Shown piece by piece: positions 3,508 through 50,512 of a stretch of DNA of 64,000 nucleotides. Location: positions 25,347 through 89,346 of the forward strand of contig JAYUPL010000014.1 of NCBI GenBank assembly GCA_043760135.1. The letters run 5' to 3'. Source of the stretch: Candidatus Parcubacteria bacterium (GTDB taxonomy: Bacteria; Patescibacteriota; Minisyncoccia; Phycocordibacterales; CAIZLB01). The notes below the pieces were generated by a model that saw only the letters and a program-made list of their open reading frames with translations, did not search any database and was not told where the DNA came from. Each line of letters starts with the position of its first letter. The first letter of the stretch is position 1. A program made the translations under genes and the position numbers.

Positions 3508-3951
3508 ATGAAAAAAAATCTCATCACATACTGCAAGCAAAAAGGTTTTACATTCATAGAGATGATAATTTCTCTCGGTCTGGTTGCTATGATATCAAGT
3601 CTTATTTTAGTCTCGTTCAATTCTTTGAACAATAAACAGTCACTTGATAAACAGATGGACTTTATAAAATCAGCAATAGGAAAAACGAGAACCAATGCTA
3701 TTAATTCACTTAACGGTGCAGATCAAGTGTTTACCTTTGCTTCAACTTCTATCACATATAATAGTCAAACGATAGATCTAGATCCAAGCATCTTATTGTC
3801 ATCATACACAACCGGCAGTAAAAATATTACATTTTCAAGATTAACAGGTTATCCAAGTGCTACAGGAACTCTGATTTACGTACTTCAAAAAGGAAGCACT
3901 GTTATTGCAACCAGTAGTATTACAATAAATAATTTAGGAATTATAGAATAA
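3508..3951 (+). CDS. prepilin-type N-terminal methylation-domain protein (pilin/pseudopilin)
   Basis: N-terminus KGFTFIEMIISLGLVAMISSLILV (G-F-T-x-x-E prepilin motif followed by a hydrophobic helix). Confidence 0.7.
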   Translation: MKKNLITYCKQKGFTFIEMIISLGLVAMISSLILVSFNSLNNKQSLDKQMDFIKSAIGKTRTNAINSLNGADQVFTFASTSITYNSQTIDLDPSILLSSYTTGSKNITFSRLTGYPSATGTLIYVLQKGSTVIATSSITINNLGIIE

Positions 3952-34428: not shown

Positions 34429-35070
34429 CTATTTTCTAGATTCTTTAATCTTAAAAACAATGTTTTTAGCGTTGCTCAGTATTGAACTTGCGAATCGTGT
34501 CAAATCGGCTGGTCCGGAGTCAGAACTATTAAATCCTTTGTATGATCCATCCAACATATAAATAGTGCTATCAATACTACTATCGTTATTACGATCTCCG
34601 TTCTTTAATACCGGTCCAACATTTTTAAGTAAGGGGTATAACTCATTAACTTTTAATTTTAATTTGTTGGTTACTTCTGCTCTAATTGCTGGAGATGTGG
34701 CTCTATCTACTCTAAAACCAAATCCTTTAACTTCAGTTTCGAATTCGTCTATCATACCAAGAATTTTTTCAGAATCTGATTCAAAAGATTCTGTAGATTC
34801 ATTTACGGTACCAAGTTGGTTCTTTAATTCTATAATTCTATTTTGATCGTTTAATGCAGCTTCGCTATTAGAAATAGTTTTTTCAGTTGAAACGGGTATA
34901 TTATTACTTGTTTGATTTACCTCTTGTCTTGAACGTAATTCTTTTTCAACAGATTCCCTTATATCTGTTGGTAGAGAGTCAAGGAAGGCATTAATTTTAT
35001 CCAGCGAATCTTTTACTTTGGTTTCATGATCTGTGTTAACTTCAAATTGGTTTGGTTTTATGTCTTCCAT
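34429..35070 (-). CDS. hypothetical coiled-coil protein
   Basis: 213 aa, charged helical sequence. Confidence 0.4.
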   Translation of the reverse strand: MEDIKPNQFEVNTDHETKVKDSLDKINAFLDSLPTDIRESVEKELRSRQEVNQTSNNIPVSTEKTISNSEAALNDQNRIIELKNQLGTVNESTESFESDSEKILGMIDEFETEVKGFGFRVDRATSPAIRAEVTNKLKLKVNELYPLLKNVGPVLKNGDRNNDSSIDSTIYMLDGSYKGFNSSDSGPADLTRFASSILSNAKNIVFKIKESRK

Positions 35071-35130
35071 GAGTGATATTATATATTAATTAGAAATACT
35101 GCGCTATTACATAACCTTGTGATTATATAG

Positions 35131-35155
35131 AAAAACGCCCACATGGGCGTTTTTC
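35131..35155 (-). terminator. hairpin aaaaacgccc-acat-gggcgttttt downstream of the minus-strand tRNA
   Basis: Perfect 10-bp stem flanked by A/T runs. Confidence 0.55.
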
Positions 35156-35158
35156 TTA

Positions 35159-35230
35159 CTGTGCTCCTGTTAGGAATCGACCTCTACGAGGTCAGTATAC
35201 CTTTGTGGTTTTCTCGGACCAAAGGTCCTC
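35159..35230 (-). other. degenerate tRNA-like remnant sharing a 22-bp 3'-tRNA segment with tRNA-Arg
   Basis: ctgtgctcctgttaggaatcga (35159..35180) differs by 1 nt from 35301..35322 (T-loop, T-stem, acceptor 3' strand, 2-nt trailer). Upstream sequence cannot form a D-arm, anticodon arm or acceptor stem. Confidence 0.4.
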
Positions 35231-35302
35231 AAAAACATCACAAAGCTTTTCGATTCCTAAAAACCCTTCGGATTTTTTAACTCGAACATATCGTAACAAT
35301 CT

Positions 35303-35375
35303 GTGCTCCCGTTAGGAATCGAACCTAAATTTACAGTTCCGCAAACTATTGTCCTATCCATTGAACGACGAGAGC
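35303..35375 (-). tRNA. tRNA-Arg (anticodon GCG by manual folding)
   Basis: Acceptor gctctcg/cgggagc, D-arm gttc-aatggata-ggac, anticodon arm atagt-ttGCGga-actgt, T-arm ttagg-ttcgatt-cctaa. No encoded CCA. Confidence 0.65.
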
Positions 35376-43973: not shown

Positions 43974-44103
43974 TATATGAAAATTTGGTAGGTGTAAATA
44001 GGGATGATTGGGTCCTTATATTATGACCTTTGTGGTTACAGGACCAGTATATCTTTCGAATCTCACCCGCAAGCCGAACTGTCGGCTTGCTCTCCATCTA
44101 ATG

Positions 44104-44136
44104 AAAAACAGATGTCTTTAAAAGACATCTGTTTTT
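44104..44136. terminator. palindromic hairpin aaaaacagatgtctttt/aaaagacatctgttttt
   Basis: 15-bp perfect palindrome with A/T runs, adjacent to the 3' end of tRNA-Ser. Confidence 0.55.
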
Positions 44137-44141
44137 CCTAG

Positions 44142-44228
44142 CGGAGGAGGTGAGATTCGAACTCACGGGACCCGTTAGAGCCCTCTTGTTTTCAAGACAA
44201 GCGCATTCGACCTCTCTGCCACTCCTCC
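44142..44228 (-). tRNA. tRNA-Ser (anticodon TGA), class II with long variable arm
   Basis: Reverse complement ggaggag-tg-gcagagaggtcgaatgcgc-ttgtc-ttTGAaa-acaag-agggctctaacgggtccc-gtgag-ttcgaat-ctcac-ctcctcc-g closely matches bacterial tRNA-Ser(UGA). Confidence 0.8.
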
Positions 44229-47630: not shown

Positions 47631-47659
47631 GCACTTCTATTTTGCCAAGGCAAAATATG
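47631..47659 (+). repeat. tRNA-trailer hairpin motif gcacttctattttgccaaggcaaaatatg (copy 1)
   Basis: 27 of 29 nt identical to the reverse complement of 50335..50363, which directly follows tRNA-Val. Confidence 0.5.
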
Positions 47660-50023: not shown

Positions 50024-50199
50024 GGTGCTATCATTATCTATGAATATCAAGATAAAACGATAGCAGATGTTGATAGGTTGGTGGGTGTATAAATAAGAAT
50101 CATACGTAAGGACCAGTATTTTTCTATCTCATTTCACCAAGGATCATTCGATAAAGAAAAATTTTTCACTTGTATTTTGGGTCCCTAACTCAAAGCTCA

Positions 50200-50284
50200 C
50201 TCACAGAACTGCCACAGGGCAGTTCCTATTGCTAAAACTCTTTCAAGTCCCTCACAAAATTGCCATCAGGCAATTTTTATCGCT
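50200..50284 (+). repeat. two 34-nt tandem hairpin units (ctcacaGaaCtgccaCAGggcaGttCCtatTgct / ctcacaAaaTtgccaTCAggcaAttTTtatCgct)
   Basis: The units are 51 nt apart. Stems differ by compensatory c-g to t-a changes. Confidence 0.45.
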
Positions 50285-50295
50285 TATATTGTGCA

Positions 50296-50333
50296 AAATA
50301 AATAGAGCCCTTAAAAAAGGACCCTATTTATTT
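50296..50333. terminator. long AT-rich palindrome aaataaatag-agcccttaaaaaaggacc-ctatttattt
   Basis: 10-bp perfect outer stem with an inner cctt/aagg stem. Confidence 0.4.
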
Positions 50334-50334
50334 C

Positions 50335-50363
50335 ACATTTTGCCTTGGCAAAATAGAAGTACA
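50335..50363 (-). repeat. tRNA-trailer hairpin motif (copy 2, follows tRNA-Val on the minus strand)
   Basis: Minus-strand reading gtacttctattttgccaaggcaaaatgtg. Confidence 0.5.
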
Positions 50364-50369
50364 CTTGTT

Positions 50370-50442
50370 GTGCGCGATGAGGGACTTGAACCCCCGACCT
50401 TCTCAGTGTAAATGAGTTGCTCTACCAACTGAGCTAATCGCG
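50370..50442 (-). tRNA. tRNA-Val (anticodon TAC)
   Basis: Reverse complement gcgcgat-ta-gctc-agttggta-gagc-a-actca-ttTACac-tgaga-aggtc-ggggg-ttcaagt-ccctc-atcgcgc-a. Classic D-arm. Confidence 0.8.
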
Positions 50443-50512
50443 CTCTCACGTAAAAATAATATATCATATTCCGATTTGATATACAAATACAACTATAGTA
50501 ATCTAATACTAT

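Follow-up and report, generated by a model that had tools for sequence, protein, structure and literature searches.

Does the partial repeat of a tRNA-Arg gene, found a short distance downstream of the gene itself, record the passage of a mobile element, or does it belong to a structure of another kind? The question is raised by one locus of a Candidatus Parcubacteria contig, of which a stretch of 64,000 nucleotides was analysed (the whole of this stretch is called the window hereafter). An earlier note on this DNA had reported that the 3' end of the tRNA recurs downstream of the gene, and had read the arrangement as an att-like footprint. ARAGORN places a tRNA-Arg(gcg) on the minus strand at 35303..35375, and the Rfam tRNA model matches 35304-35375 with 57 bits. 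The repeated 22-mer, CTGTGCTCC[C/T]GTTAGGAATCGA, lies at 35301-35322 and again at 35159-35180, with an identity of 21/22 and a start-to-start spacing of 142. In 100 dinucleotide shuffles of the window, matches to this 22-mer with at most 3 mismatches amounted to 0.00, which shows that the duplication of the tRNA-Arg 3' end is genuine. Read on the tRNA strand, the repeat covers T55-A73 followed by CAG, that is, the last 19 nucleotides of the tRNA and 3 nucleotides of trailer; the description of the repeat as the tRNA 3' end is thus right, and only the trailer has to be lengthened, from the 2 nt first given to 3 nt beyond the discriminator. As the earlier note had said, the second copy is no tRNA itself: neither ARAGORN nor Rfam (E<=10) detects one at that place.

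A third, partial T-loop string had also been pointed out at 35249..35260. It is indeed present, but its orientation had been missed. The plus-strand sequence ttcgattcctaa at 35249-35260 reads TTAGGAATCGAA on the tRNA strand, which is the reverse complement of tRNA T54-A65; it is complementary to 35312-35323 at 12/12 positions and to 35170-35180 at 11/11 positions. This inverted string pairs with the second 22-mer and thereby closes a structure: the 146-nt trailer that follows the tRNA folds with -47.4 kcal/mol (z = -4.3 compared to shuffles). The single terminator hairpin said to close the region was recovered at 35129-35156 as a perfect inverted repeat of 13 bp with a T run after it; a simple scan for the terminator consensus missed it only since the T run was counted as stem. 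The 142-bp insert holds no ORF, and no integrase or other mobile-element gene adjoins it. The features of the locus are listed below in the direction of the tRNA; P1, P2 and P3 are the helices of a three-way junction, and R1 is the covariance model described further on.

35304..35375, minus strand: tRNA-Arg(GCG) gene, base of the element (ARAGORN; Rfam tRNA 57 bits; CCA not encoded)
35301..35323, minus strand: segment A, tRNA nt 54-73 plus trailer CAG, template for both arms (the 22-mer of the earlier note is 35301-35322)
35278..35300, minus strand: spacer including a degenerate A'acc at 35278-35288 (UGUUCGAGUUA), antisense to the acceptor 3' strand
35259..35277, minus strand: P0' hairpin, AAAAAUCC-GAA-GGGUUUUU, seen in loci L003 and L012 too
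35249..35260, minus strand: antisense arm A'T (TTAGGAATCGAA), exact complement of tRNA nt 54-65; P1 5' strand
35199..35247, minus strand: P2, a long hairpin with a U.G / G.A / A.G internal motif (UGAG/CGAG), hypervariable among copies with its pairing kept
35194..35198, minus strand: junction J2/3, AUACU (family consensus NGUACU), placed by alignments and model match
35179..35193, minus strand: P3, 6-bp hairpin GACCUC-GUA-GAGGUC with an invariant GUA loop; paired in 97.7% of cells, 5/6 pairs compensatory
35159..35180, minus strand: sense arm A'', tRNA nt 55-73 plus CAG, the second 22-mer; P1 3' strand
35170..35260, minus strand: core, the three-way junction P1-P2-P3 (R1 107.7 bits, E 2e-24)
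35129..35156, minus strand: intrinsic terminator ending the transcription unit of tRNA and element, homologous to the terminator right after the tRNA in L005 and L197

The next-best match of R1 in the window reaches 14 bits, so that the window contains one full copy. The P0' hairpin occupies the spot at which other copies carry a hairpin named P0, namely the boundary between the acceptor and T-stem parts of the antisense arm. In the minimum-energy fold, 35278-35288 pairs weakly with 35162-35172; the corresponding arm is an exact complement in other family members and is degenerate in the window copy.

The 160-aa ORF located just upstream of the tRNA has homologues in Patescibacteria, and a profile of these was used to gather syntenic loci. 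It retrieved 17, from MAGs of Parcubacteria, Paceibacteria and Nomurabacteria; 15 of them share the tRNA-Arg(GCG). The comparison with relatives that the earlier note had called for revealed both empty and occupied sites at this tRNA. In L004 and L002 the tRNA runs directly into a terminator and the element is absent; in L005, L197, L006 and L191 the tRNA is followed by a terminator and then by a related structured element; L003 has the arrangement of the window, and L012 contains a tandem pair of elements with a copy of the tRNA end after each. In the alignment, the sequence past the second 22-mer of the window (AGTAAGAAAAACGCCC...) corresponds to the terminator that directly follows the tRNA (...GCACAG) in L005 and L197. 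The extra 142 bases of the window are therefore bounded by the repeat. This part of the att-like description holds, since the repeat delimits DNA that is missing from L005 and L197. Its attribution to an integrase-mediated insertion or excision of a phage or island does not: the insert is devoid of any ORF, has no integrase nearby and no carrier among the phage, plasmid and viral contigs searched, and forms a conserved, covarying structure.

In L012 the tRNA is followed by unit 1 (with core B) and its A'', then by terminator T2, by unit 2 (with core A) and its A'', and lastly by T1 and the remnant of a third unit; in both L197 and L005 it is followed by T1 and then by the third unit. On this basis the window can be reconstructed as a fusion at GGAATCGAAA, with the left context of unit 1 on one side and core A, A'' and T1 of what would be another unit on the other. 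A core about 96% identical to that of the window is found in a different context in L139. Recombination between the repeated arms can explain the empty, one-unit and two-unit states of the Arg locus, all of which are derivable in this way. The A'' of the window has an A at position 67, which is the state of the tRNA in sister lineages. The single mismatch between the two 22-mers thus reflects a change in the tRNA and not a decay of the copy. Small hairpin inserts were seen inside the copies of L191, and in L012, L141 and L185 the tandem units lie on the tRNA-proximal side.

Seven syntenic copies align as a three-way junction made of P1 (GGAAUCG/CGAUUCC), a junction strand AAAR, P2, a junction strand NGUACU and P3 with its GUA loop. 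In these copies 91.6% of the cells are paired (34-57% with slid partners), and compensatory changes occur at 16 pairs. The covariance model R1 was built from the seven copies and was applied to the contigs (at least 120) that a stricter core-pattern scan of metagenomes had returned. It detected at least 136 copies on at least 100 metagenomic contigs, with 118 distinct cores among the matches listed. Over the at least 136 matches, 89.7% of the cells are paired (38-51% with slid partners) and 32/34 pairs show compensatory change, while the invariance of the junction motifs is partly a matter of ascertainment, because the metagenomic pattern fixes them. P2 is hypervariable even within a single contig, and the copies of one contig are strongly diverged.

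The position of the copies relative to tRNA genes is nearly constant. Among the matches listed, 85 copies have a tRNA within 150 nt, and 83 of them lie downstream of this tRNA on the same strand with a median gap of 68 nt; the neighbour tRNAs span at least 26 anticodon species and at least 16 isotypes. We also counted from the side of the tRNAs. An antisense copy of their own nt 54-65 (at least 11/12) is present within 200 nt downstream for 75/143 tRNAs of the fetched loci that have enough flank, and for 0/143 in the upstream control; the former proportion is biased upward, as loci were picked for having at least one copy. In the window, 3/5 tRNAs carry such an antisense copy: the tRNA-Arg and the two tRNAs followed by the sister elements below.

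44002..44090, minus strand: degenerate sister element behind tRNA-Ser(tga) 44141-44228, with an antisense arm at 44053-44068 that matches tRNA nt 54-65 at 12/12 positions
50176..50255, minus strand: sister element behind tRNA-Val(tac) 50370-50443, with an antisense arm at 50240-50255 that matches TTCAAGTCCCTC at 12/12 positions and is followed by a different hairpin core

The sister element of tRNA-Ser(tga) has kept P0 (44069-44090), has lost P2 and has an interrupted P3; R1 scores 12.9 bits at 44002-44066. Other cores, or no core at all, were also found between arms of the same kind in L149, L169, L094 and L162.

We then asked whether the element is catalogued. Rfam 15 returned tRNAs only, at E<=10 for the locus and at E<=0.5-1 for nine other loci; the best non-tRNA match at the locus, antisense_SR1 with 27.9 bits (gathering score 45), is driven by the terminator. 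A loose core pattern gave 52 hits in viral contigs, which is about the number expected by chance, and R1 matched 0/52 of them. The tRNA 3' end was found in 0 contigs of IMG/VR. The search of phage and plasmid sequences suggested in the earlier note also came back empty, as blastn against 50,697 phage and 72,556 plasmid records gave no match to the element or to the tRNA end. Clustering of the 920 ORFs located within 3 kb of the matches listed revealed housekeeping synteny only; over the same distance around the at least 136 listed copies, families of recombinases, transposases or reverse transcriptases showed no enrichment. A full-text literature search found no description of such tRNA-linked elements; the nearest paper deals with group I introns at position 35/36 of Patescibacteria tRNAs (PMC13011429). 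The reading to which we give an even chance is that the second 22-mer is the 3' arm of an element of about 145 nt, made of nested hairpins and sitting on the 3' end of tRNA-Arg, and that this element belongs to a large and uncatalogued family of Patescibacteria.

To describe the relation between the element and its tRNA, we compared the arms of the copies with the neighbouring gene. The full order, from 5' to 3', is tRNA (nt 54-74 being segment A), spacer X, A'acc, P0, A'T, core and A''. X is often an intrinsic terminator. By Watson-Crick pairing, A'acc complements the acceptor 3' strand, the discriminator and part of the trailer. A'T complements the T-loop together with the 3' strand of the T-stem, and ends with ...TCGAA. 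The core consists of AAR, the long variable P2, NGUACUG and the 6-bp P3 with its GUA loop. A'' is a sense copy of nt 54-74 with trailer nucleotides (1-7, and more than 20 in L089), and is sometimes split at 59/60 by a hairpin P4. P0 exits the helix exactly at the boundary of acceptor and T-stem, where nt 8-48 exit a real tRNA. Both arms follow the T-loop variants of their neighbours, namely TTCGAATC in Ser and Tyr, TTCAAGTC in Val, TTCAAATC in Asp and Ser, TTCGAGTC in Leu and TTCGAGCC in Met. These data show that each arm is specific to its neighbour tRNA.

In 79 unique copies, A'T (at least 10/12) was detected 70 times, A'acc (at least 8/9) 45 times and A''acc 39 times. The acceptor arms are distributed as A'acc only in 31 copies, A''acc only in 25, both in 14 and neither in 9. 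Where the two arms disagree, the tRNA is matched by A' 104 times and by A'' 28 times. Opposite U71, A' has an A where tRNA-Glu has G2, and at the Arg(cct) loci it reads GCAGG and not GUGGG. A' is thus Watson-Crick at positions where the tRNA itself has G.U, which indicates that it complements the 3' strand; an origin from the tRNA 5' strands was rejected for this reason. As the arms run into the gene-specific trailer, they are templated on the gene or its precursor and not on the mature tRNA. At some loci, ORFs encoding RhuM, ASCH, DUF559 and transglutaminase-like proteins lie between the tRNA and the element. In L137, L133 and L083, a remnant of A stands between this cargo and X-A', and a cassette with cargo inside the unit was rejected for this reason: ordinary islands entered at the tRNA and displaced the unit as a whole, which is gene-less. 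Partial tRNA copies were observed at some loci (a 3' half in L071, a 5' half in L169).

Several observations bear on whether the element works as RNA or as DNA. Among the matches listed, the tRNA-sense strand is more stable than the antisense strand in 95/118 copies, with a mean difference of 2.3-2.8 kcal/mol (p ~1e-12), and the tandem G.A motif is retained in P2. This suggests that a single strand of defined polarity is under constraint. By another count the strand signal is absent, as P2 in the model alignment contains 61 G.U and 56 A.C. The share of G.U is 3-3.5% of the element pairs, compared to 11.5% in the neighbouring tRNAs; the hairpin loops are of the GTA/GAA type, not GNRA or UUCG, and GCGAAGC mini-hairpins occur. 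The low G.U share and the loop types fit DNA palindromes, and some copies contain long perfect palindromes that span the terminator. In copies bearing A'acc, the commonest architecture, a terminator was found between the tRNA and the element in 22/29 cases and after the element in 1/29. A terminator placed before the element, and rarely after it, is odd for an RNA gene. In the window, the interval between tRNA and element contains the weak P0' hairpin and no terminator, and the only strong terminator comes after A''. Since it lies between the tRNA and this terminator, the element of the window is expected to be transcribed as the trailer of pre-tRNA-Arg. In the full copy L085, the minimum-energy fold pairs the tRNA 3' third with A' through the terminator and the tRNA 5' acceptor strand with the distal A''.

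We favour a cis-acting RNA, encoded in the tRNA 3' trailer, over a selfish or recombination module of folded single-stranded DNA. The RNA reading is a model whose chance of being right we place at, or somewhat below, one half; the DNA reading we consider rather unlikely. According to the RNA model, each pre-tRNA-Arg of the window would carry the element as its 3' trailer, and once its 3' end is processed, the antisense and sense arms would form P1 and expose the junction. Where other copies give read-through precursors, the antisense arm may capture the 3' third of its own tRNA, with A'' pairing to the 5' acceptor strand. The module would then act in cis and be linked to how its own tRNA is matured or surveyed. 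We know of no RNA function that requires both a sense and an antisense copy of the 3' third of a tRNA. The repeat is an arm of the element that pairs with the antisense arm; the direct repeat is therefore part of the design of the element and not an att scar.

The DNA reading takes the same element to be non-autonomous, with the tRNA-sense strand folding as single-stranded DNA, for instance on the lagging-strand template. The A':A'' stem would rebuild the duplex of the tRNA 3' third, and a recombinase or HUH nuclease encoded in trans would insert the element at tRNA 3' ends. The nearest likenesses would be an integron attC site, the folded attP of CTX phage or an IS200/IS605-type end recognised through its hairpin. 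Direct and inverted target copies around a variable structured centre indeed recall the layout of integron cassettes, in which R' at attI is followed by R'' and then R' in the cassettes. The tRNA-proximal tandems (L012, L141, L185), the patchy presence among relatives, the near-perfect Watson-Crick helices with few G.U, the GTA/GAA-type loops and GCGAAGC mini-hairpins, and the hairpins that land within copies (L191) all speak for this reading, as do the terminator that separates tRNA and element in most type I copies, the inclusion in the arms of a trailer that does not look transcribed and the palindromes across the terminator. Against it stand the enzyme survey, in which the 3 kb around the at least 136 copies showed no enriched family of recombinases, transposases or reverse transcriptases, and the strong divergence of copies on one contig, which is not that of a recent burst. 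Moreover, cargo genes lie outside the unit, ahead of the A remnant; the structural variants of the Arg locus are all derivable by homologous deletion or duplication; and the conserved tandem G.A motif and junction purines indicate a specific fold rather than a mere palindrome. To our knowledge, no enzyme rewrites 20-nt arms for each target. The preferred RNA reading has to be weighed against three further explanations, all of them much less probable. The least improbable is a classical att footprint, in which a tyrosine integrase used an attB from the T-loop to the 3' end of tRNA-Arg and a later, nearly total deletion left attL and attR with 120 bp of junk. A direct repeat from the T-loop to just beyond the tRNA end is typical of such sites, as reportedly described by Williams (2002, NAR 30:866). 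Empty sites exist in relatives, and true small islands with RhuM, DUF559 and ASCH genes occur at tRNAs of the clade. We nevertheless judge this history very improbable: the 120 bp are a conserved covarying structure present at 136 loci or more behind at least 26 tRNA species, the insert also contains the same tRNA segment in inverted form, its surroundings lack an integrase, and both the element and the tRNA end are absent from the phage, plasmid and viral contigs searched.

A decaying tandem duplicate of tRNA-Arg, whose 5' two-thirds would have mutated past recognition, is more improbable still. The 3' 22 nt nearly equal those of the tRNA, and L071 and L169 do contain partial tRNA copies; however, ARAGORN and Rfam find no trace of acceptor 5', D and anticodon arms upstream of the copy, the junction is conserved with compensatory changes, and the same core stands behind unrelated tRNAs. 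We give the lowest probability of all, close to nil, to a cis-regulatory leader, i.e. a riboswitch or a T-box-like, tRNA-sensing attenuator of the 213-aa ORF (34429-35070) with the terminator as expression platform. This idea draws on a structured RNA and a terminator 59 nt upstream of a same-strand gene, and on the tRNA-complementary sequence. Yet the downstream genes vary from locus to locus and are often on the opposite strand, the upstream tRNA being the constant partner; most copies have no terminator after the element, and neither a specifier, nor NCCA-binding logic, nor an Rfam T-box match was found.

We compared the element with known systems that combine repeats and structure, among them integron attC, CTX attP, IS200/IS605 ends, retrons and tRNA-like structures. 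By the tests of membership applied, the element could be assigned to none of them. With att sites in tRNA genes it shares a duplication from the T-loop to past the tRNA end, a repeat that bounds DNA missing in relatives and a tandem accretion by the tRNA. It differs from them in having no integrase, no internal cargo and no attP donor, and in having an inverted copy and a conserved covarying core that serves at least 26 tRNA species with arms rewritten each time. In integron attC and in the folded single-stranded attP of CTX phages (IMEX), inverted and direct copies of the target core likewise flank a variable structured centre, one strand folds, the stem rebuilds the target duplex and new units adjoin a fixed site. 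The arms of the element are however about 20 nt long and tRNA-specific (12-21-mers), in place of a fixed 7-nt core, a dif-like site or RYYYAAC/GTTRRRY. In contrast to integrons, the units are gene-less, the junction sequence is conserved and no IntI/Xer-type recombinase is enriched near the listed copies. The palindrome-associated transposable elements of the IS200/IS605 type (PATEs) and REP/BIME are, like the element, small, non-coding, hairpin-rich and intergenic just downstream of genes, with strand-specific folding and conserved loop and foot nucleotides. The copies of the element are not near-identical, unlike those of PATE, REP or MITE (118 distinct cores among at least 136), and their position at the tRNA 3' end and their neighbour-templated arms set them apart as well. 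Neither TnpA nor RAYT was found near the copies.

The full copies also resemble tRNA-like or top-half mimics (viral TLS, mascRNA, the tmRNA TLD, YrlA) in that their two arms stack an acceptor-like helix upon a T-stem-like one, P0 exits where nt 8-48 do and the 3' strand stops at least 1 nt beyond the discriminator. This geometry of 7 bp acceptor-like and 5 bp T-stem-like is seen in the 14 copies with both acceptor arms, and the helix often passes N73. The window copy has 5+4 weak pairs at the acceptor-like helix, and many copies lack one acceptor arm. Unlike in these mimics, a further helix and a three-way junction stand in place of the T-loop, and it is the element's own neighbour tRNA that is copied. 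Archaeal split and intron-containing tRNAs (the Nanoarchaeum halves, BHB introns in the T-loop) similarly present a spare tRNA 3' part after a tRNA-complementary sequence, and the minimum-energy fold of full copies places the element like a giant insert in the T-loop; here, however, the upstream tRNA is complete, a bulge-helix-bulge is absent and the host is a bacterium. The tRNA introns recorded in Patescibacteria are of group I, at position 35/36. Finally, retron ncRNAs, with a1/a2 around msr and msd, also have inverted repeats that close short conserved and long hypervariable hairpins. In the element the order of these hairpins on the folding strand is opposite, no reverse transcriptase is adjacent, Rfam gives no retron match and the arms are tRNA-derived.

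We tentatively propose, with a likelihood that falls slightly short of even, a previously unrecognised class of Patescibacteria elements that are "written" from the neighbour tRNA: a three-way-junction module flanked by templated antisense and sense arms, acting either as RNA or as mobile DNA. If so, an uncatalogued structured module would be appended to a sizeable share of the tRNA genes of a bacterial radiation that ranks among the largest. As RNA, it would be a new tRNA-linked RNA, a programmable antisense or decoy acting on how its own tRNA is matured, surveyed or repaired, and would add a layer to tRNA biology in ultra-small bacteria with minimal RNA-processing machinery. As DNA, it would represent a novel type of mobile element, with arms templated afresh on each target in a manner that has no known precedent, about 20 nt of target being copied in both orientations outside known transposition or site-specific recombination. 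In practical terms, such loci will be mistaken for prophage att scars, and their repeated arms drive local rearrangements beside single-copy tRNA genes.

Some further candidates were considered for parts of the structure and rejected. A hammerhead has, in this order, CUGANGA, GAAA and a third junction strand of one nucleotide. The junction strands of the element are AAAR, NGUACU and none, CUG is followed by the P3 stem and not by ANGA, and Rfam gave no match, so that this reading was rejected. For twister, hatchet, pistol and HDV, the lengths and order of the junction strands are wrong and Rfam gave no matches. A box C/D or K-turn motif, suggested by CUGA and tandem G.A, was discarded as variable stem bases follow CUG and there is no 3-nt bulge. 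The antisense arm is not a primer-binding site, as it complements the gene trailer and not CCA. In core-2 and core-1, GAAAGUCCGG and GUACUGAACCCGGGUAGG resemble RNase P RNA, a likeness that no model match supports. Around the locus of the window, the neighbouring genes encode a DUF2339 protein and small membrane or unassigned proteins; the 213-aa ORF at 34429-35070 is on the same strand as the element and begins 59 nt beyond the terminator.

Elements with an antisense arm that copies part of the neighbouring tRNA also lie behind two other tRNAs of the window; they are listed here with two short hairpin repeats:

44141-44228 (-), tRNA-Ser(tga)
44069-44090 (-), P0 hairpin of the tRNA-Ser(tga) sister element
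44053-44068 (-), antisense arm of this element, matching 12/12 that tRNA's own nt 54-65
50370-50443 (-), tRNA-Val(tac)
50240-50255 (-), antisense arm behind tRNA-Val(tac), matching 12/12 the tRNA's TTCAAGTCCCTC
50176-50198 (-), 23-nt hairpin repeat GAGCTTTGAGTTAGGGACCCAAA, near tRNA-Val
47634-47656 (+) and 50337-50359 (-), 23-mer CTTCTATTTTGCCAAGGCAAAAT, a small hairpin, same sequence twice

The tRNA-Ser(tga) region (44002-44228, -) contains, behind the gene and in this order, a terminator, the P0 hairpin, the antisense copy and a degenerate core in which P2 is gone and P3 is interrupted. This element represents a decayed sister of the nested-hairpin element downstream of tRNA-Arg(GCG), here called the Arg element. 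In the tRNA-Val(tac) region (50176-50443, -), the antisense arm is located about 116 nt downstream of the gene, and its accompanying hairpin core differs from that of the Arg element. The arm logic is thus shared by more than one core family; further core types were met in L149, L169, L094 and L162, loci fetched from relatives or metagenomic contigs.

GAGCTTTGAGTTAGGGACCCAAA looks like a separate mini-insertion sequence; in relatives L191-L195 the Arg element has its antisense arm split by this repeat (about 1843). CTTCTATTTTGCCAAGGCAAAAT stands directly 3' of two different tRNA genes of the window, Arg(tct) and Val(tac). Ordinary small islands and partial tRNA copies were also observed at tRNA loci of the clade (L071, L083, L133, L137 and L169), the islands carrying RhuM, ASCH, DUF559, transglutaminase-like and pyrophosphatase-like ORFs. 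The copy comprises the 3' half, from the anticodon loop on, in L071, and the 5' half in L169. These loci suggest that the same tRNAs have undergone integration or rearrangement in separate events.

The bacterial CGN arginine tRNA usually carries the anticodon ACG, edited to ICG by TadA. In contrast, the anticodon is GCG in that of the window (35303-35375, -), in all syntenic relatives having the gene (15/15, L002-L018) and in many metagenomic loci, suggesting that the clade may read CGY without inosine. Its acceptor stem contains U5.G68 and C6-G67 in the window, and a C6.A67 mismatch (GCTCCCG / CAGGAGC) in L002, L003, L012, L139, L191 and L197. The A67 state is retained in the window's second 22-mer, the sense arm (35159-35180). 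The public gene call on L001 includes an almost certainly spurious 34-aa 'protein' at 3524-3628 (window about 35257-35361), which straddles the tRNA and the beginning of the Arg element.
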